A stretch of 10,780 nt of DNA from Halobacteriaceae archaeon (GCA_042216675.1 JBDGTS010000056.1:1-10780), one strand, 5' to 3'. Shown: positions 1,074 through 10,780, counted from the stretch's first letter. Notes: a model not told the origin generated them from the letters alone. Made by a program: numbers and translations.

Positions 1074-1679
1074 TCACTGACGGTCGGCGATGAAAAACGG
1101 CTTCTCCGAATCCTCTGTGGTCGGGTCCGGCACGTCCCACCGGCCGCGGACGTCGAAGCCACACGCCAGCAGGTCCTCGCGCGTCGCGTCGGGACCGGCC
1201 ATCGACCAGTGCATCTCGGTGCCGCTGTCGAGCCAATCCGGGTTCGACCCGGACCACTCCATCCCGCCTTCGGACACCAACAGCGTGCCGCCCGGGTGGA
1301 GGACGCGCGCGAACTCCGCGACGACGGCGCGGTGGTCGTCGAGAGGCACGTGAATCAGCGAGTAGAGCGCGGCGACGGCGTCGAAGGAGTCATCGGCGAA
1401 GGGGAGCGCCGTCATGTCGCCTTGCACGAGTCGCGCCGATACGGTTTCGCGCGCCGCGTCCAGTTGCTCGCGGGAGAAGTCGAGGCCCACGCCCCTCTCG
1501 CCGGCGACGTCGAGTGGCGCGTCGCCCCCGCCACATCCCGCGGAGAGGAGGTCGTCGTCGGGGTCGAGGTCCGCACAGAAGCGTTCGACCGGTTCCGGCA
1601 TCGACCCGATGGCTTCGCCGTCGTTGAACTCGGCGGCCATCTCGTCGTAGGCCCCCTGTATCGCGCGCCGCCTGTCCAT
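1074..1679 (-). CDS. Class I SAM-dependent methyltransferase (Methyltransf_11/25-like), about 201 aa
   Basis: Motif I variant LLSAGCGGG, then GLDFSREQL, QGDMTALPFADDSFDAV, YSLIH and ARVLHPGG. Acidic composition. Start placed at ATG 1679 (MDRRRAIQGAYD) rather than the upstream ORF limit at 1745. Confidence 0.9.
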   Translation of the reverse strand: MDRRRAIQGAYDEMAAEFNDGEAIGSMPEPVERFCADLDPDDDLLSAGCGGGDAPLDVAGERGVGLDFSREQLDAARETVSARLVQGDMTALPFADDSFDAVAALYSLIHVPLDDHRAVVAEFARVLHPGGTLLVSEGGMEWSGSNPDWLDSGTEMHWSMAGPDATREDLLACGFDVRGRWDVPDPTTEDSEKPFFIADRQ

Positions 1680-1788
1680 ACTGTCGTGTGTGACCGTGGA
1701 CACTTCAGCGTTCGCCGATTCACGTGTCGCGCCGGACCAGCGCATCTCCGACGGGGCGGGCGGTGTCTGAACCGTGTTCGTCTCGAAA

Positions 1789-2157: not shown

Positions 2158-3210
2158 ATGGATAGACGGAAGTTCCTCGCGACGGCCGGTGCGGCGGCGT
2201 CCACGGCCATCGCTGGCTGTTCGGGTTCGGGCGGAGACAGCGGCGAGGACACCCTCGTCGTCGCCACGTACGGGTCGTTCATCGACTCACCCTCGTCGAG
2301 TCCCGGCGCGTGGCTGAAGCAGCGCTTCGAGGAGGAACACGACGCCCGCCTCGTGTACCAGACGCCCTCGAACGAACTCAACCACTACGTCGAGCGACGG
2401 AAAGCCGGCGTCAGCATCGACGCCGACGTGTATCTGGGTCTCAACACCGAGGACCTCGTGCGCGTCGACCAGAACCTCGACAGCGCCCTGTTCACAGAGG
2501 CCGGCGATGTCGAGGGCCTGAACAAGGTCAAAGACGGCCTCGAAATCGACCCGAAGGGCCGCGCTGTTCCCTACGACACGGGCTACGTCAGCCTCGTCTA
2601 CGACGGCACCAAGATGACGGCGCCCGAGACGTTCGATGGCCTCCTCGCCGAGGAGTATCAGGGCGACCTCATCGCACAGAACCCCTCCTCGTCCTCGACG
2701 GGTCGGGCCTTCCTCCTGCACACCATCCACCAGTACGGCGCGGACGGCTACCTCGACTACTGGGCGGACCTGCAGGACAACGGCGTGAAAGTGCTCGGGG
2801 AGTGGGGCGACGCCTACGGCGCGTGGCAGGGAGGCGAGGCGCCGATGGTCGTCTCCTACTCCACGGACCGCGTGTTCGCCGACCAGAGCGACGCGAACAT
2901 GGCGAAGCACAAGATTCGCTTCCTGAACGACGAGGCGTACGCCAACCCCGAGGGGATGGCTATCTTCGAGGACGCGGCCCGCCCGGACCTCGCGCGGGAC
3001 TTCATGGAGTTCGTCCTCCAGCCGGAGATTCAGGGCCAACTCGCCGTGCAGAACGTCCAGTTCCCGGCGACGACGAACGCGAACGTGCCCGCGGACTACG
3101 CGGATCTCGCGAAATCGCCGCCGAAACCGGTCACTTTCACGTACGACGAACTGCAGGGTAACGTCAGTGGCTGGATCGAAGCCTGGACCCAGCAGTTTGC
3201 GAGCAACTGA
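2158..3210 (+). CDS. thiB: Thiamine ABC transporter substrate-binding lipoprotein (TbpA/ThiB family), Tat-exported
   Basis: Twin-arginine signal MDRRKFL and lipobox IAGC. TbpA-like segments LVVATYGSF, ADVYLGL, VPYDTGYVSLVYD, QNPSSSSTGRAFL and WGDAYG...GEAPMVVSYST. Followed by permease and ATPase genes. Confidence 0.9.
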   Translation: MDRRKFLATAGAAASTAIAGCSGSGGDSGEDTLVVATYGSFIDSPSSSPGAWLKQRFEEEHDARLVYQTPSNELNHYVERRKAGVSIDADVYLGLNTEDLVRVDQNLDSALFTEAGDVEGLNKVKDGLEIDPKGRAVPYDTGYVSLVYDGTKMTAPETFDGLLAEEYQGDLIAQNPSSSSTGRAFLLHTIHQYGADGYLDYWADLQDNGVKVLGEWGDAYGAWQGGEAPMVVSYSTDRVFADQSDANMAKHKIRFLNDEAYANPEGMAIFEDAARPDLARDFMEFVLQPEIQGQLAVQNVQFPATTNANVPADYADLAKSPPKPVTFTYDELQGNVSGWIEAWTQQFASN

Positions 3211-4981
3211 GGACCGTCTCCACGCGACTGCGGAGCGCTGGGCGCTCGCCGGCACGGCGCTTCTCACCGCCGTGATTCTGCTCGTCGTCTTCTACTACCC
3301 GGTCAGCCGCGTCTTCGTCGACGCCGTCGTCGTGGATGGGCGCGTCACCCTGCGCGTCGTCTGGCGGGTCCTTCGGGACCCCTTCTACTTCGGGGAGTTC
3401 GCGCGCCTGCTCCGGGGCGCGTCGCCGGGCGGCGTCGCGCACCGAGTGCTGACGGGCCGGGCACGTCTGGGCATCGTCGGCTTCACCGCGTATCAGGCCG
3501 CGCTCTCGACGGTGGCGAGCGTCGCACTCGGACTGCCGGGCGCGTATCTGCTCGCCCGCTACGAGTTCCCGGGGCGGGGCGTCGTCCGTTCCCTGACGAT
3601 GCTCCCCTTCGTCCTCCCGTCGATGATGGTGGCCGTCGGCTTCGTCGCCACCTTCGGCCGGACGGGGACGCTCAACGCAGTCCTCCGGACGCTCGGCCTC
3701 GGACGGGTCAACCTCCTCTACACGCTCGAAGCGATCGTCGTCGCTCACGCGTTTTACAACGCGCCGCTGGTGACGCGCATGACGACGGCGGCGTGGGAGT
3801 CCGTGGACGCGAGCGCCGTCGAGACGGCCCGGAGCCTCGGCGCGAGTCCGCTCCACGCGTTTCGAACCGTCGTCGTTCCCCAACTCGTCCCCGCGGTGCT
3901 GATGAGCGCCGCGCTCACGTTCGTGTTCACGTTCGGGTCGTTCCCCATCGTCCTCTCTCTCGGCGGCCTCCAGTTCGCGACGGTGGAGGTGTTCGTGTTC
4001 CAGTTGATTCGGGACTTCAGTTACGCCGAGGCGGCGACGCTCGCGCTGATCGAACTGGCCGTCTCGCTCACGCTGATGTACGGGTACCTCCGCTACGAGG
4101 CGGCCCACTCTGCCCGCTCGCGGGGCGTGCGTCGTCTTCCCCGCCGGTCGCTCCGGCCGCCGCGGCTCTCGGCTCGCGAACTGCTCCCGCGCCTCGGACT
4201 GGCGCTGTACGGTGTCGTCGCAGTCGTCGTCTTCGTCGTCCCGATCGCGTCGATGGTCCACGCCAGCGTGACGGGGCCGACGGGAATCACCCTTGACCAC
4301 TACCAGTTCCTCGTGGAGCGACAGACGACTGGGGCGGCGTTCGAGGTGCGCCCGTGGCCCGCGGTCAGGAACTCGCTCCTGTTCGGCGTCGGGTCGCTCC
4401 TGCTCGCCCTGCCGATGGGCGTCGTCGTCGCGGTGCTGACGACGCGGGAGTTCGTCGGCCGGAAAGTCGTGGACGCCATCGCGATGGCCCCGCTTGCCGT
4501 CTCGGGCATCGTCGTCGGCCTCGGACTGCTTCGGGGCCTCGTCTTCGGCGTCGAAATCGCCGGGACGCGCTACGCCGTGACGGGCGCGTTCGCCATCGTC
4601 GCCGCGCACGCCGTCGCCGGCTATCCGTTCGTCGTGCGCGTCGTCGCGCCCGGCTTGGAGCGGTTGGACCCGGCGCTCGTCGAGTCGGCACGGGCACTCG
4701 GGGCGCCCCGCGTCCGTGCGCTCCTCGACGTGGAGTTACCGCTCGTCTGGCCCGCCGTCGTCGCGGGCGCGGCGTTCGCCTTTGCCATCTCCATCGGAGA
4801 GTTCACGTCCACCGCCGTCCTCGCGTCGGGCACGGGACAGTACACGATGCCGGTCGCAATCGAGCGCTTCATCGGCCGCCGCCTCGGCCCGGCGACGGCG
4901 ATGGGCGTGGTGTTGCTCGTCGTGACGGCCACGAGCTTCGTCGCCATCGAACGGCTCGGGGGTGAGCGCGATGGCCTCTGA
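3197..4981 (+). CDS. thiP: ABC transporter permease with two fused BPD_transp_1 halves (ThiP family); start codon uncertain
   Basis: Two EAA-loop motifs (VETARSLGAS, VESARALGAP), AHAFYNAPLV and many TM helices. It lies between the binding protein and the ATPase. There is no N-terminal ATG; TTG 3197, overlapping the thiB stop, was chosen (GTG 3167 and GTG 3272 are alternatives). Confidence 0.88.
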   Translation: MRATEDRLHATAERWALAGTALLTAVILLVVFYYPVSRVFVDAVVVDGRVTLRVVWRVLRDPFYFGEFARLLRGASPGGVAHRVLTGRARLGIVGFTAYQAALSTVASVALGLPGAYLLARYEFPGRGVVRSLTMLPFVLPSMMVAVGFVATFGRTGTLNAVLRTLGLGRVNLLYTLEAIVVAHAFYNAPLVTRMTTAAWESVDASAVETARSLGASPLHAFRTVVVPQLVPAVLMSAALTFVFTFGSFPIVLSLGGLQFATVEVFVFQLIRDFSYAEAATLALIELAVSLTLMYGYLRYEAAHSARSRGVRRLPRRSLRPPRLSARELLPRLGLALYGVVAVVVFVVPIASMVHASVTGPTGITLDHYQFLVERQTTGAAFEVRPWPAVRNSLLFGVGSLLLALPMGVVVAVLTTREFVGRKVVDAIAMAPLAVSGIVVGLGLLRGLVFGVEIAGTRYAVTGAFAIVAAHAVAGYPFVVRVVAPGLERLDPALVESARALGAPRVRALLDVELPLVWPAVVAGAAFAFAISIGEFTSTAVLASGTGQYTMPVAIERFIGRRLGPATAMGVVLLVVTATSFVAIERLGGERDGL

Positions 4982-6023
4982 GTCGGCCCTCGAACTCCGG
5001 GCCGTGACGAAGCGATACGGCGAGGCGACGGCCGTCTCGGACCTCTCGCTCTCGGTTCGGGAGGGCGAGTTCTTCACGCTCGTCGGTCCCTCCGGATGTG
5101 GCAAGACGACGACGCTCCGTCTCGTCGCCGGATTCGAGGCCCCCACGGCGGGCGAAATCCGCTTCGGCGGCGAGAGCGTCGCTGGCGTCCCCCCCGAGGA
5201 CCGCGACGTCGGCGTCGTCTTCCAGAACTACGCGCTGTTCCCGCACATGACCGTGGGCGAGAACGTCGCCTACGGCCTGCGGTTCGCCGACCCGCCCGCG
5301 GGCCGCACGCGAGCGGAGCGGGTCACCGAACTGCTCGAACTCGTCGACTTGCCCGGAATGGCCGAGCGCGACCCGGAGACGCTCTCGGGCGGCCAACGAC
5401 AGCGGGTGGCGATGGCGCGCGCCCTCGCGCCCCAACCGGACGTGCTGCTCTTGGACGAGCCGATGAGTGCCCTCGACGCCCAGTTGCGAGAGCGTCTGCG
5501 CGTGCAGGTCCGGGCGATACAGCAGGAACTGGGCATCACGACGCTGTACGTCACACACGACCAAGAGGAGGCGCTGGCCATCTCCGACCGGGTGGCCGTC
5601 ATGCAGGGCGGCACGCCCGAACAGGTGGGGACACCGCGGGACATCTACCGACGGCCCGAGACGGAGTTCGTCGCGGAATTCGTCGGCGACAACAACGTCC
5701 TCACCGGCGAGGTGACGGCGGTTGCGGCGGCCGAGGCGTCCGTCCGCGTCGACGGGACGACGTTCACCGTGGCCCGGCCCGACGAGTCGGTGACTGTCGG
5801 GGATCCACTCACGTTCTGCGTGCGGCCCGAACGGCTGACCGTCGGTGCGGAGGCGAACGCCGTCGAGACGACCGTCGAGAGCGCGGAGTTCCTCGGCGAG
5901 GCGACGCGTCTCCACCTCGACTGGCAGGGGCGGGAACTCCTCGTGCGCGCCGCCGACCCGGTGACGGGTGCTGTGACCGTCGGCTTCGACCCGAGCGACG
6001 CGCACGTCGTCGGCTCACTCTAG
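4971..6023 (+). CDS. thiQ: ABC transporter ATP-binding subunit (ThiQ/PotA-like, with C-terminal TOBE-like domain)
   Basis: Walker A GPSGCGKT, Q-loop VFQNYALFPH, signature LSGGQ, Walker B LLLDEP and H-loop VTHDQEEA. An SD-like GGGGTGA precedes ATG 4971, which overlaps the thiP stop. Confidence 0.9.
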   Translation: MASESALELRAVTKRYGEATAVSDLSLSVREGEFFTLVGPSGCGKTTTLRLVAGFEAPTAGEIRFGGESVAGVPPEDRDVGVVFQNYALFPHMTVGENVAYGLRFADPPAGRTRAERVTELLELVDLPGMAERDPETLSGGQRQRVAMARALAPQPDVLLLDEPMSALDAQLRERLRVQVRAIQQELGITTLYVTHDQEEALAISDRVAVMQGGTPEQVGTPRDIYRRPETEFVAEFVGDNNVLTGEVTAVAAAEASVRVDGTTFTVARPDESVTVGDPLTFCVRPERLTVGAEANAVETTVESAEFLGEATRLHLDWQGRELLVRAADPVTGAVTVGFDPSDAHVVGSL

Positions 6024-6690: not shown

Positions 6691-6786
6691 CCCGTCGCGG
6701 ACGCTCCCTCCGTTTTCCGCTCGCATCGCGTTCGACCGACAGTCTCGACCACGACCATGACACGACAGCACCGACGGAACACAGAG

Positions 6787-7641
6787 ATGAGCAAGTACCC
6801 CAGCATCCGGCCCGAGAACTACTACGACGAGTACGGCGAGGCCGAATGGGAGCGTCTCGACGCCGACCCGAAGACCCGCTACGAGTTCGAGAACACTGTC
6901 GCGTATCTCGACGAGCGCCTACCGGACTCCGGCCACGTCCTCGACGCGGGCGGCGCGGCGGGGCGCTATGCGGTGTGGCTCGCCGAACGCGGCTACGAGG
7001 TGACGCTGGCGGACGTCAGCGACACCCAACGGGACATCGCCCGCGAGAAGGCGGCCGAACACGGCGTCGCCGACTGCGTGACGGTCGAACACGGGGACGT
7101 GCGCGACTTGCCCTACGACGAGGCCGCCTTCGACGCGGTGTGCTGTCTCGGCGGTCCGCTCTCCCACGTCGTGGACTCGCTGGAACGGGCGCGGGCGGCC
7201 CGCGAACTGCGGCGCGTCGCCGCGCCCGGCGCGCCCGTCTTCGTCTCGGTGATGGGCCTCGTCGCCGTTCTCCAGCAGTTGGTCCGGTTGGCCGGCGAGC
7301 ACGAACAGGAGGCGCGCCAACTCCCGGGCCTCCTCGACGGCGGCACGTACGACGCGTCGCTCCTCGCCGACGCCGGCGTGACGGACCCCAACTTCGTCGA
7401 GTGCCACTTCTTCCGGGCCGCGGAACTCCGGCGGCTGCTCACGGAGGCCGGCCTCTCCGTCGACACCGTCGCCGGGTTGGAGGGCGTCGCCTCGAACGCC
7501 GGCGCATCGCTCTCCGACGCCTCCGAGACGGCGCTGGGCCACGTCGACGAGGTGGTGACCGACCCCGCGTTCCGCGAGGACCCCACGGTGGCCGACCTCT
7601 CCGAACACATCTTGGCCGTCGCCATCGCGCGCTGTCGGTAG
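6787..7641 (+). CDS. Class I SAM-dependent methyltransferase, about 284 aa
   Basis: N-terminal YYDEYGEAEWERL, motif I VLDAGGAAGRY, VTLADVS, HGDVRDLPYDEAAFDAVCCLGGPLSH and RRVAAPGAPVFVSVM. The start is ATG 6787 or ATG 6757. Confidence 0.9.
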   Translation: MSKYPSIRPENYYDEYGEAEWERLDADPKTRYEFENTVAYLDERLPDSGHVLDAGGAAGRYAVWLAERGYEVTLADVSDTQRDIAREKAAEHGVADCVTVEHGDVRDLPYDEAAFDAVCCLGGPLSHVVDSLERARAARELRRVAAPGAPVFVSVMGLVAVLQQLVRLAGEHEQEARQLPGLLDGGTYDASLLADAGVTDPNFVECHFFRAAELRRLLTEAGLSVDTVAGLEGVASNAGASLSDASETALGHVDEVVTDPAFREDPTVADLSEHILAVAIARCR

Positions 7642-7677: not shown

Positions 7678-8163
7678 ATGGTGTCGGACGCGTCCGGCCC
7701 CCGGAGCGCGCTTCGCTTCCCGTGGGGCTTCGGTCTGCTCTACGGGTTCTTGGCGGCCGTCGCGGGTGCGGCGACGACGCTCGCCGTCATCGTCGTCGAC
7801 TGGTCCGGCCTCCCGCCGCGACTCGGGGCGTTGACCCTCCGAATGCTGTACGAGGCCCACGGCGTGGGCGTCGCCGGCCCGCCGCCCGTCGTCGGCCCCG
7901 CCCTCCCCGGCGCGGCGACGGCGCTCGTCCCCGTCGTCGTCCTCACCGCCCTCGGGTACGCGCACGCGGGTGGCTACGTCGGCACGAGCGCCCAGCAGGC
8001 CGTCCTCGCGGGCGCGTCGATCGCCGTCGGCTACGTCGCCGCGGCGCTGGCGGGCGTTCTCCTCGGGGTTCGTGCCTCGCCGCTCGCCGCTATCGTGGCG
8101 TTTGGCGGCTACGCCCTCGTCTTCGGCGGTCTCGGTGGCTATCTCGCCCGGTCCCGGTCGTGA
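7678..8163 (+). CDS. Hypothetical membrane protein (161 aa, about 4 TM)
   Basis: Hydrophobic helices, an LYEAHGV segment and a C-terminal GYALVFGGLGGYLA. Its own TATA-like TTTAT is at 7648-7652 (-30 to -26). Confidence 0.8.
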   Translation: MVSDASGPRSALRFPWGFGLLYGFLAAVAGAATTLAVIVVDWSGLPPRLGALTLRMLYEAHGVGVAGPPPVVGPALPGAATALVPVVVLTALGYAHAGGYVGTSAQQAVLAGASIAVGYVAAALAGVLLGVRASPLAAIVAFGGYALVFGGLGGYLARSRS

Positions 8164-8450
8164 ATCGTCTCGTGGGCGCCGATGACCATCGCCGGGACGA
8201 CGAGCATGAACAGATGCTCCTCGACGGGGATGCCGAGCAGATTCACGCCGGTGCGTAACTCGATGGCGAAGACGCCGATGTGGAGCGTGTACCAGTCCCA
8301 GAGGTAACCCACCGGGTAGAGGACGGCGACGGTGACGCCCGCGCGGCGGAGCGCCCGCGCCCGGTAGCAGAGGACGAGCGCCACCGCGCCGAACACGACT
8401 TCGGAGGCGAGATAGGTGTACGGCCCGAAGACGGCGCCCAAATCGAACAC
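8139..8450 (-). CDS. Lycopene cyclase domain-containing membrane protein (single domain, about 103 aa)
   Basis: YTYL at the N-terminus, YLWDWYTLHIGVF and LLGIPVEEHLF (the PxEE motif of CrtYc/CrtYd/archaeal-type cyclase domains). The start is probably GTG 8450 (MFDLGAVFGPYTYL). Confidence 0.8.
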   Translation of the reverse strand: MFDLGAVFGPYTYLASEVVFGAVALVLCYRARALRRAGVTVAVLYPVGYLWDWYTLHIGVFAIELRTGVNLLGIPVEEHLFMLVVPAMVIGAHETIHDRDRAR

Positions 8451-8562
8451 TCTGATGTCTTCGCGCGCCGAGACCAAAACGGTGCCGGACGGCCGTAATG
8501 TATAGGAGTGGGACCAAGGTTCAATAGGCCCGGGGTGAGACACTTAAACGAGGCCGCTCACC

Positions 8563-9705
8563 ATGGATATCTCCAATATTGCCACCCGCGAGTACATCGA
8601 GGTCGACGGCGACGAACGTCTCGGCAAGGTTCGGTCTATCTTCGAGGACGAGAGTCCGAAGGCCATCGTCGTGACCGAGGACGGCGAGTACGAAGGTGTC
8701 ATCACCGAAAAGCAACTGCTCCAGTCTCACATGCAAGACGAGGCGAAGGCGTCGGGCCTCGTCTGGCCGGTCCCGAAAGTCGAGCGTCACGAGGACGTGC
8801 GGGAGACGGCCCGGATGCTCGTGGAGGGCGACACGAAGGTGGCGCCTGTCTTCGAGGGCGAGAATCTCTGGGGCATCGTCACCGACGACGCCATCCTACG
8901 CGCGGTCATCGACAGCCTCGACGCCATCACCGTCGGTGACATCTACTCGGACGAACCCATCACCATCGAGGAGGACACGACCATCGGACGCGTCGTGAAC
9001 CTGATGCGGGAACACGGCATCTCCCGGCTCCCGGTCCTGAACGAGAACGGCTACCTCACCGGCATCGTCACGACCCACGACATCGTCGACATGGTCGTCC
9101 GCCGGATGGACAACCCCACCGTCGGCGAGCGCGCGGGGGACAACGACCGGATGCTCGACCTGCCCGCTTACGACGTGATGTCCGAGCCGGTCGAAACCGT
9201 CGCCGCGCCCGAAACCGTCGACGAGGCCGTCCGCGGAATGCTAGACCGCGACATCGACGGTCTCGTCGTCACGCCCGACGACGACCGAATCGTCGAGGGC
9301 GTGTTGACGAAGACGGACGTGCTCCGTGCGCTCTCCTACACCGAGGAGGAGCACATGGACGTCCAGATAACCAACATCCACCTGCTGGAGGACACCATCA
9401 CGCGCCAGCAGATCCGCGAGGACGTCGAGGGCATCGCACGCAAGTACGAGAAGATGACCGTGCGCCACGCCCACGTGCGCTTCCACAAGCACAAGGAGAC
9501 CCAGCGCGGGACGCCGCTGATTCGGTGCCAGATCCGCCTGCGCACCGACCGGGGGCAGGTGGCCGGCACCGGCGAGGGCTACGGCACCGAGAACGCCTTC
9601 GACGTGGCGCTCGACCTGTTGGAGCGCAACCTCCTCGAACTGAAGGGCGTCCGCTCGGACGAGGAGTACCGCGGCCAGTTGCTCCGCAAGCTCGGCCGCC
9701 TGTAG
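8563..9705 (+). CDS. Protein with four CBS domains (two Bateman modules) and a C-terminal HPF/RaiA-like domain; probable archaeal ribosome hibernation factor (380 aa)
   Basis: CBS signatures YEGVITEKQL, LWGIVTDDAI, ISRLPVLNENGYLTGIVTTHDI and VEGVLTKTDVL. The region from M265 onward has a beta-alpha-beta-beta-beta-alpha pattern ending GEGYGTENAFDVALDLLERNL, like HPF/RaiA (S30AE) domains. CBS call about 0.95; HPF-domain call about 0.8. Confidence 0.88.
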   Translation: MDISNIATREYIEVDGDERLGKVRSIFEDESPKAIVVTEDGEYEGVITEKQLLQSHMQDEAKASGLVWPVPKVERHEDVRETARMLVEGDTKVAPVFEGENLWGIVTDDAILRAVIDSLDAITVGDIYSDEPITIEEDTTIGRVVNLMREHGISRLPVLNENGYLTGIVTTHDIVDMVVRRMDNPTVGERAGDNDRMLDLPAYDVMSEPVETVAAPETVDEAVRGMLDRDIDGLVVTPDDDRIVEGVLTKTDVLRALSYTEEEHMDVQITNIHLLEDTITRQQIREDVEGIARKYEKMTVRHAHVRFHKHKETQRGTPLIRCQIRLRTDRGQVAGTGEGYGTENAFDVALDLLERNLLELKGVRSDEEYRGQLLRKLGRL

Positions 9706-10410
9706 TCAGCGCGACTCGGCGGCTTCCAGCCCGCTATCGGTGATCTGAAACGTCACCGACTCGCCGGTCGGCTTCGACCGGTGTTTCTCCAGCGTCGCCC
9801 GCCGGCGGCCACCCCGGAACCGTTCGAGGGAGACGATGGTACTCGTCCAGTGTGCGAGCGTGTGCCCGCCGAGCGGCCGCGACGTGTCGGAGTCGGAGTC
9901 GGGGTCCGTGTACACCTGATTCGTCACCAGCACCGCGAGGTCGTGACGACGCGCGAGCGACAGCAGGTGCGTTATCTGCCGGGCCACCTGCCTGAGGGCT
10001 TCGCCGTCTTCGCCCCCGGCCTCCGTGCGGCGGAGCCGATAGAAGCCGGTGGCGCTGTCGAGGACGACGAGGTCCGCGTTCGCGGCGAGGTCCTCCGCGT
10101 CTCGGACCGCCTCGGCCTGTTCGTCGAAGTCGCGGGCCGCCGAGACGACGACCCGACTCGACGCCGCGTCCACGTCGTCGACGCGCCCGGCGAGCAACTG
10201 CTCGAAGCGCTCCGGCGAGATACCCTCCGTGTCGACGTAGACGGTGCGCGCGCCGTTCGCCGCCGTCTCGACGGCGGCCCTCAGCGCGACGTTCGTCTTC
10301 CCCGCCGCGGGCGGGCCGTAGAGTTGGGTCACCGCGCCGCGTTCGAGGCCGCCCCCGAGCAAGTCGTCGATGGGGTCGGCCCCGGTCGGAAGCCGGTCTG
10401 TGCGTTCCAC
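9706..10410 (-). CDS. radB: DNA repair and recombination protein RadB (234 aa)
   Basis: RecA-family core lacking the RadA N-terminal domain: LPTG...IDDLLGGGLERG, Walker A GPPAAGKT, YVDTEG, Walker B LVVLDS, TNQVY, PLGG and the RadB basic patch LEKHR. GTG start. Confidence 0.95.
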   Translation of the reverse strand: MERTDRLPTGADPIDDLLGGGLERGAVTQLYGPPAAGKTNVALRAAVETAANGARTVYVDTEGISPERFEQLLAGRVDDVDAASSRVVVSAARDFDEQAEAVRDAEDLAANADLVVLDSATGFYRLRRTEAGGEDGEALRQVARQITHLLSLARRHDLAVLVTNQVYTDPDSDSDTSRPLGGHTLAHWTSTIVSLERFRGGRRRATLEKHRSKPTGESVTFQITDSGLEAAESR

Positions 10411-10430
10411 TGCCCGCGGCTACGGCGCTC

Positions 10431-10445
10431 CCGAAGAAAAACCCC
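10431..10445 (-). promoter_or_regulatory. T-rich tract: possible radB TATA-like box and/or terminator of the upstream glycosyltransferase gene
   Basis: The minus strand reads GGGGTTTTTCTTCGG. The T5 is about 27-31 nt upstream of the radB GTG and about 10 nt downstream of the glycosyltransferase stop. Confidence 0.4.
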
Positions 10446-10451
10446 GCGACC

Positions 10452-10780
10452 CTACCGCACGTCGTCGAGCACCCGCTCCGCGATGGCCGCGACGCCGTTG
10501 GTGTGCGCGGGCGCCGCCGGCGGGTCGTCGAGGGCGGCCACCGCGCCCGCGGCGTCGTCGGCGACGACGAAGCCCTCGACGGAACGGAGTCGACGGGCCA
10601 CCCCTCGCTGTTCGTTCGTCTCCGGGACGACGACGCAGGGCGTCCCCGCGACGGCGGCCTCCATCACCGTCGAGTAGCCCGCACACACCACGGCGTCTGC
10701 GCGTTCGAGGACGGGCAACAGCGCGGGCACCGCCTCCCAGTCCGGGTCGCCGACGTGGGTCACCGTCCGCCCGGCGTCCC
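10452..10780 (-). CDS. Glycosyltransferase (GT-B fold, GT28 C-terminal/MurG-like), 3' part only; the gene begins beyond the window
   Basis: LERADAVVCAGYSTVMEAAVAGTPCVVVPETNEQRGVARRL matches the nucleotide-sugar-binding motif. The frame stays open to the window edge. Confidence 0.85.
   Translation of the reverse strand, partial: DAGRTVTHVGDPDWEAVPALLPVLERADAVVCAGYSTVMEAAVAGTPCVVVPETNEQRGVARRLRSVEGFVVADDAAGAVAALDDPPAAPAHTNGVAAIAERVLDDVR

Follow-up and report, generated by a model that had tools for sequence, protein, structure and literature searches.

We analyzed a 10,780-nt stretch of DNA from a Halobacteriaceae archaeon (GCA_042216675.1, JBDGTS010000056.1:1-10780), hereafter the window, and found that it encodes at positions 8563–9705 of the plus strand a protein in which four CBS motifs are fused to a C-terminal domain of the HPF/RaiA type. 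With a probability of roughly 0.93, we assign this gene to the archaeal ribosome hibernation factor AHA/HibA, as its core-type ortholog in haloarchaea. Its architecture, its fold, its membership of the AHA/HibA family and the conservation of Thr and Asp residues in CBS3 and CBS4 are direct results of our analysis. A preliminary description of the window had proposed a nucleotide-sensing hibernation factor of this kind and had pointed to reports of archaeal CBS–HPF fusions named Hib and AHA. This was accurate. Hib/HibA is described in a bioRxiv preprint of October 2025 (10.1101/2025.10.11.676729) and in Nat Commun in April 2026 (PMC13324472), and AHA, which is HVO_2384 of Haloferax (Hfx.) volcanii, in bioRxiv in February 2026 and EMBO J in October 2026 (PMC13728122). 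This work of 2025–2026 reports cryo-electron microscopy (cryo-EM), knockouts, binding of adenosine monophosphate (AMP) and a survey of >3,000 homologs. The window gene is, accordingly, a correct re-identification of a system that is already known and not a discovery.

Gene and domain architecture

The open reading frame (ORF) starts with ATG and encodes 380 amino acids (42,876 Da, isoelectric point (pI) 4.67); all coordinates in the preliminary description proved correct, including the start of residue 265 at nucleotide 9355. At 69% GC, the window contains many spurious long ORFs. The aha/hibA frame has a GC content at third codon positions (GC3) of 0.91, typical of real genes in this window. 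It is not a chance ORF; a full-length match was present in 121/121 sampled genomes of the class, the window's own included.

Pfam placed CBS motifs in four stretches (E 1.5e-39, with the best stretch at residues 124–178), in agreement with the four repeats proposed earlier. The basic patch that had been noted in an otherwise acidic protein was also evident. Residues 263–380, with 21 Lys and Arg and 6 His, have a pI of 8.88 (7.97 for the HPF/RaiA-like core, residues 265–362) versus 4.25 for residues 1–262, and the strong acidity of the protein is expected for a halophile.

Automated annotation captures this architecture in part. No NCBIfam family matched the protein above its cut-off; the matches obtained were to families with CBS motifs and scored far under the respective cut-offs. 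When the window's own genome was searched in six frames with the Pfam model Ribosomal_S30AE (PF02482), nothing was returned at E <= 1, since this model does not accommodate the divergence of the archaeal HPF domain; among 113 family members, 29 reached E <= 0.01 with it (best 5.6e-8). The earlier guess that annotation would stop at the CBS motifs held for NCBI, where homologs are named just 'CBS domain-containing protein'; it did not hold for JGI names, which add 'ribosome-associated translation inhibitor RaiA' in ~20 of the 120 homologs listed. The present assignment is, thus, of value for annotation, since NCBI-style pipelines give such genes only the CBS name and most of them escape the Pfam S30AE model.

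Structural models and fold matches

For structure prediction and conservation counts, we used a family alignment of 113 full-length members from an exhaustive representative search. The resulting AlphaFold2 model of the full-length protein had a mean predicted local distance difference test (pLDDT) score of 92.2. Its N-terminal part consists of four CBS units arranged as a compact tetrad, followed by a strand (266–270), a helix (281–294), three strands (300–314, 317–328 and 331–340) and a final helix (342–379). The sole weak part is the loop at residues 181–200 (pLDDT block means 60–77), as would be expected for a loop that becomes ordered only on the ribosome.

Foldseek searches were run against a structure library with entries up to 2026-04-08, evidently without the HibA and 9l96 chains. 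With the full model, all matches were CBS tetrads (E 1e-17 to 1e-23). They included Sri proteins on the Methanosarcina ribosome (9znf_4, E 2.7e-23), SSO3205, MJ1225 and Dri; chains of CBS-only hibernation factors thus rank among the best matches of the N-terminal part (9znf_4 and, at E 4.2e-17, 9e6q_3). Many AMPK-gamma and SNF4 chains appeared among the top 50 (E ~1e-18, template modelling (TM) score ~0.7), such as 8bik_F at E 7.4e-19 and TM 0.71 (target-normalised), in line with the AMPK-gamma-like tetrad of the preliminary description.

Because the full-length search returned CBS tetrads only, the C-terminal 118 residues were modeled alone (pLDDT 82.9), again with the HPF-type topology, and searched separately. 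All eight matches with E <= 0.001 were ribosome-bound HPF, pY or RafH chains, including 5mmj_y (E 3.0e-5) and, at E < 1e-3, 8uu4_w, 5zep_x and 6h4n_x. The HPF-family matches ranged from E 3e-5 to 5e-3, with the highest TM score for 4hei_A (0.73, target-normalised), and the next ranks were taken by YfiA, RaiA and HPF proteins of E. coli, Vibrio, Thermus and others. The HPF/RaiA-like domain predicted earlier, for which a structural comparison with this family had been suggested, thus finds its counterparts exactly there.

Relationship to ribosome-bound HibA

A sequence search against PDB chains connected both modules to one solved protein. Chain 9sr9_H (392 amino acids) aligned end to end with the window protein (residues 3–377 versus 6–388, E 7.5e-47), and a profile of the C-terminal domain by itself matched the HibA chain at E 1.7e-13. 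Entries 9SR9–9SRF and 9T7H are reported as Pyrococcus abyssi HibA on the 70S ribosome (PMC13324472).

The AHA and HibA papers (PMC13728122, PMC13324472) report the HPF domain in the 30S mRNA/tRNA channel, the CBS tetrad bound to the 50S subunit and a long CBS3 loop reaching into the peptidyl transferase centre (PTC). They further describe slower regrowth from stationary phase and depletion of 70S ribosomes in aha/hibA deletions, and HibA was reported on ~75% of hibernating-like particles (PMC13324472). From these accounts, which concern HVO_2384 and the HibA proteins of P. abyssi and T. barophilus, we infer how the window protein would bind the ribosome, insert into the PTC and act in the cell. 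Its basic C-terminal domain would occupy the 30S mRNA/tRNA channel, its acidic four-CBS disc would cover the A and P sites of the 50S subunit, and the loop after CBS3 would reach into the PTC. A single polypeptide would in this way bridge both subunits, block translation and protect idle 70S ribosomes in stationary phase.

The loop after CBS3 corresponds to 'loop 3' of AHA and to the 'PTC loop' of HibA (P. abyssi residues 190–207), as these are named in the two papers. The window loop aligns without gaps to the PTC-loop region of P. abyssi HibA, and the span 178–203 has the modal family length of 26 residues, shared by 76/113 members.

Adenylate-binding positions

The pairs T170/D173 in CBS3 and T249/D252 in CBS4 are near-invariant in the family, with D173 conserved in 101, T249 in 111 and D252 in 108 of the 113 members, whereas the equivalents in CBS1 and CBS2 are variable. 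The Asp-equivalent residue is Q51 in CBS1 and A110 in CBS2, both at family-variable positions. We take all of these to be the positions at which CBS motifs contact the ribose. Their conservation in CBS3 and CBS4 fits the published adenylate sites at the interface of these two motifs, where the AHA paper places two AMP molecules (PMC13728122). In the window protein, the CBS3/CBS4 interface is thus the probable binding site of adenylates, AMP being favoured. For HibA, dissociation constants of 12 uM for AMP, 65 uM for ADP and 113 uM for ATP are reported (PMC13324472).

As for the energy-charge sensor of the preliminary description, AHA and HibA bind AMP, but the sensing step is unproven even in these characterized homologs. 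According to the HibA paper, AMP or ATP had no clear effect on ribosome binding (PMC13324472), and the AHA authors propose that AMP stabilizes loop 3 (PMC13728122).

Distribution, paralogs and orthology to HVO_2384

Each of the 120 other sampled class genomes contained a full-length match, and in the phylum-level sample a match was found in 102/201 genomes. Identity to the window protein within the class was 58–69%, except in genomes G003 and G026, where the G003 copy was 51% identical and the single G026 copy matched in two pieces at 47–54%. These two genomes belong to one family (f3) and have one AHA gene of 395 amino acids each, at ~51% identity to the window protein.

About a third of the class genomes (41/120) contained more than one match. 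The extra matches were mostly in two pieces (residues 1–19x and 187–36x) at 35–51% identity, and in a few genomes they were full-length (G068, 47%; G095, 43%; G015, 42%; G080, 39%; G074, 35%). A related protein has been solved. PDB chain 9l96_a (406 amino acids) was the best PDB sequence match of the window protein (E 2.8e-67). It has ~20 more residues in the loop after CBS3, which splits the alignment into two pieces. A gene in locus L094 (639–1856, plus strand, 405 amino acids) matched 9l96_a at E 1.6e-185, so 9l96 represents a second, long-loop class of haloarchaeal paralogs. A full-text literature search found no paper citing PDB 9L96. Long-loop paralogs of ~392–411 amino acids occur beside the core gene, as in locus L094 and in loci from genomes G090, G115 and G058, and in G058 and G113 the paralog lies ~1–6 kb from the core gene.

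In a quick maximum-likelihood tree with support values from the Shimodaira–Hasegawa-like approximate likelihood-ratio test (SH-aLRT), all Halobacteria sequences formed one clade (99). The long-loop genes grouped at 100 and were joined by the single copies of G003 and G026 at 97. The window protein fell into the core clade of haloarchaea, together with sequences from Haloferacaceae.

The characterized HVO_2384 can be placed in the core group from its reported mass and pI (42,521 Da, pI 4.87; PMC12607858), its K311/K313 register and its radB neighbour. Core orthologs have masses of 41.9–43.2 kDa versus 44.4 kDa for one long-loop paralog. The acetylation sites of HVO_2384 are K311 and K313 (PMC12607858), and the lysines of the corresponding basic motif stand at exactly 311 and 313 in 31 of 44 motif-bearing core orthologs, all 31 of them 380 amino acids long. 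RadB is HVO_2383, which adjoins AHA (PMC7776575). On the indirect evidence of mass and pI, lysine register, radB and tree, the window protein belongs to the HVO_2384 ortholog group and not to the long-loop class.

Several observations weigh against the assignment as a core-type AHA/HibA ortholog. The window protein is known here from its sequence and predicted structure alone, and the genome that contains it is a bin of 80% completeness. Its Ribosomal_S30AE match (residues 280–361) stayed below threshold, with E 0.0023 and 19.0 bits versus a gathering cut-off of 23.7, and the profile of the C-terminal domain reached bacterial RafH only at E 0.059, so that the sequence-level link of this domain to bacterial HPF is weak. 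The loop after CBS3 is less basic than the family consensus, with N184 where 84/113 members have Arg or Lys and D193-N194 where most have Glu-Lys. In the lysine motif, position 313 is Thr and not Lys. Support for the core clade is only 55–89 SH-aLRT, and orthology to HVO_2384 was concluded indirectly, from its reported properties, the radB neighbour and the tree.

Comparison with known systems

The closest described relative is AHA (HVO_2384), which comes from the same organism class, has the same four-CBS plus HPF architecture and a similar size (42.5 versus 42.9 kDa), and shares the radB neighbour. Its K311/K313 register is that of the 380-residue orthologs, from which the window protein differs by T313 and an extra K309. 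This likeness is drawn from the reported properties of HVO_2384; orthologs in other Halobacteria families are 58–69% identical to the window protein.

HibA (P. abyssi Pab0961, Thermococcus barophilus TERMP_00697) is homologous from end to end, with the same two modules and a gap-free loop. It is distant, since family representatives of similar search rank are ~30% identical to the window protein, and the latter, unlike HibA, is strongly acidic. The papers report one adenylate per CBS module for HibA, by isothermal titration calorimetry, versus two AMP in AHA. The long-loop paralogs (9l96_a, named 'CBS domain-containing protein') also have the four-CBS plus HPF architecture but form a separate clade at 97–100 SH-aLRT. 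The genome of the window itself, an 80%-complete bin of 2.15 Mb and 58 contigs, showed the core copy only and no long-loop paralog.

With bacterial and plastid HPF, RaiA (YfiA, pY) and RafH, the window protein shares the predicted HPF fold of its C-terminal domain, and both cryo-EM papers report the same 30S binding site for bacterial HPF and AHA/HibA. It differs from these proteins in not reaching the S30AE gathering score, in its fused N-terminal CBS tetrad and in a longer last helix, a feature also reported for AHA relative to E. coli HPF (PMC13728122); furthermore, it has no long-HPF dimerisation domain. AMPK-gamma and SNF4 have a CBS tetrad of similar fold but ~15% sequence identity to the window protein. 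The adenylate sites of AHA are reported to correspond to AMPK-gamma sites 3 and 4 (PMC13728122), whereas the papers describe direct binding of the AHA/HibA tetrad, unlike AMPK-gamma, to the 50S subunit. Both its fusion to an HPF domain and the published complexes with ribosomes point to an effector other than the AMPK kinase complex. Lastly, SriA-D and ARC-A,P of Methanosarcina and Methanolobus and Dri of Thermoproteota are described as ribosome-binding CBS tetrads but lack an HPF domain, and Dri is reported to bind the 50S subunit in the opposite orientation (PMC13728122).

Adjacency to radB and possible partners

The gene next to aha/hibA encodes RadB and is convergent with it, such that the two stop codons abut. 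Among 67 Halobacteria loci with enough flank, the two genes were adjacent in 25, convergently in 23 and on the same strand in two. Of 20 loci taken from other classes in this phylum, none had a RadB homolog within 3 kb. Adjacency to radB is, therefore, specific to the Halobacteria class, and we treat radB as genomic context, at most a putative member of the system. A word search of the main text of both cryo-EM papers returned no mention of the gene neighbourhood. Biochemical links are reported in the literature. P. abyssi Pab0961, which is HibA, was recovered in pull-downs together with RadB and a deacylase of the Sir2 family, and the same paper cites a personal communication on in vivo interaction of Hvo_2384 with RadA and RadB (PMC3820547); the pull-downs are also mentioned in the HibA discussion (PMC13324472).

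These links raise the idea of a hibernation factor that is regulated by lysine acetylation and a recombination partner and not by adenylates alone, which we consider rather unlikely. In such a scheme, Pat2 could turn off ribosome binding by acetylating the factor, and Sir2 could turn it on again by deacetylation. The idea fits the pull-down of Pab0961 with RadB and Sir2, the adjoining radB in many Halobacteria and the co-purification of HVO_2384 with an inactive Pat2 acetyltransferase (PMC12607858). The K311/K313 register is part of a conserved basic motif, located within the basic patch where the second strand of the HPF domain ends, and the window protein carries K309, K311 and T313 there (residues 309–313, nucleotides 9487–9501). 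A word search of both cryo-EM main texts found no mention of lysine acetylation or Sir2. If the idea were true, ribosome storage could be tied to DNA repair and energy state. For follow-up on the switching of hibernation, the core copies with their long-loop paralogs, the class-specific radB adjacency and acetyl-lysines in the HPF basic motif offer starting points.

The RadB data could also be read the other way round, with the protein chiefly serving RadB (and RadA, or replication proteins) as a partner or regulator that depends on adenylates, and ribosome binding being secondary or a form of storage. In its favour are the convergent radB neighbour, the 25/67 adjacent loci, the reported Pab0961 pull-down and Hvo_2384 communication, and the notion of a sequestering partner that the HibA authors themselves raise (PMC13324472). 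We nevertheless judge this reading very improbable. As all 20 loci from other classes lack a nearby RadB homolog, the adjacency may be inherited synteny within one class. In addition, the reported AHA/HibA knockout phenotypes concern ribosome pools and recovery from stationary phase, and HibA occupies most hibernating-like particles in the published account.

A generic CBS regulatory protein, such as an HhpR-like transcription regulator whose C-terminal domain is HPF-like without binding ribosomes, would account for the sub-threshold S30AE score, the exclusively sub-cut-off CBS matches in NCBIfam (HhpR among them, at 44 bits versus a cut-off of 520) and the plain NCBI homolog names, but this reading is already disfavoured to the point of being negligible, since the alignment to ribosome-bound HibA is full-length and includes the C-terminal domain, the profile of that domain matches the HibA chain, its top Foldseek matches are exclusively ribosome-bound HPF-family chains and HhpR-type proteins are reported to have no HPF domain (PMC13728122, PMC13324472).

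Gene neighbourhood in the window

The features of the window are listed in Table 1. A scan for sigma-70 promoters and terminators over positions 8100–10500 gave nothing above shuffled sequences, and the scan model is not applicable to archaeal promoters.

Table 1 Features of the window and two related single-copy AHA genes. Coordinates refer to the window unless a locus is named; boundaries given with a tilde are approximate.
Feature	Position	Strand	Remarks
SAM (S-adenosylmethionine) methyltransferase	1074-1745	-	Upstream of aha
ABC (ATP-binding cassette) importer binding protein	2158-3210	+	Upstream of aha
ABC importer permease	3167-4981	+	604 amino acids; two BPD_transp_1 (ABC membrane-component) matches
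ABC importer ATPase with TOBE domain	4962-6023	+	Upstream of aha
Second SAM methyltransferase	6757-7641	+	Upstream of aha
Small, very hydrophobic ORF	7678-8163	+	Upstream of aha
Lycopene-cyclase-domain gene	8139-8543	-	Divergent to aha; TIGR03462, 45.8 bits versus cut-off 39.4
aha/hibA gene	8563..9705	+	380 amino acids; four CBS motifs and HPF/RaiA domain; stop codon 9703-9705
CBS1	8563..8730	+	Residues ~1-56; Pfam and AlphaFold2 secondary structure
CBS2	8746..8925	+	Residues ~62-121; Pfam and AlphaFold2 model
CBS3	8932..9102	+	Residues ~124-180; T170, D173; best Pfam CBS stretch
Extended loop after CBS3	9103..9168	+	Residues 181-202
CBS4	9169..9342	+	Residues ~203-260; T249, D252; Pfam and AlphaFold2 model
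HPF/RaiA-like core	9355..9648	+	Residues 265-362; basic motif around K309, K311
Last-helix extension and tail	9649..9702	+	Residues 363-380; one long model helix 342-379
radB	9706..10410	-	234 amino acids; NCBIfam RadB equivalog NF006861, 386 bits versus cut-off 278
Gene with weak glycosyltransferase matches, 3' part	10452-10778	-	5' end beyond the window
Single AHA genes of G003/G026 (family f3)	L099:494-1681; L100:509-1702	+; -	Group with the long-loop clade in the quick tree

On the other side of aha/hibA, a lycopene-cyclase-domain gene adjoins it in 36/67 Halobacteria loci. In the window, the start of this gene at 8543 is probably placed too far upstream, because conservation spans only ~95 of its 134 residues. 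Farther away, the three genes of the ABC importer form an operon (2158–6023, plus strand) with overlapping gene ends, flanked by two unrelated SAM methyltransferase genes. A long ORF at 9781–10677 on the plus strand, antisense to radB, is probably no gene; its GC3 is 0.80 versus 0.89 for radB, and its tblastn matches in related loci arise because it mirrors the conserved radB frame.

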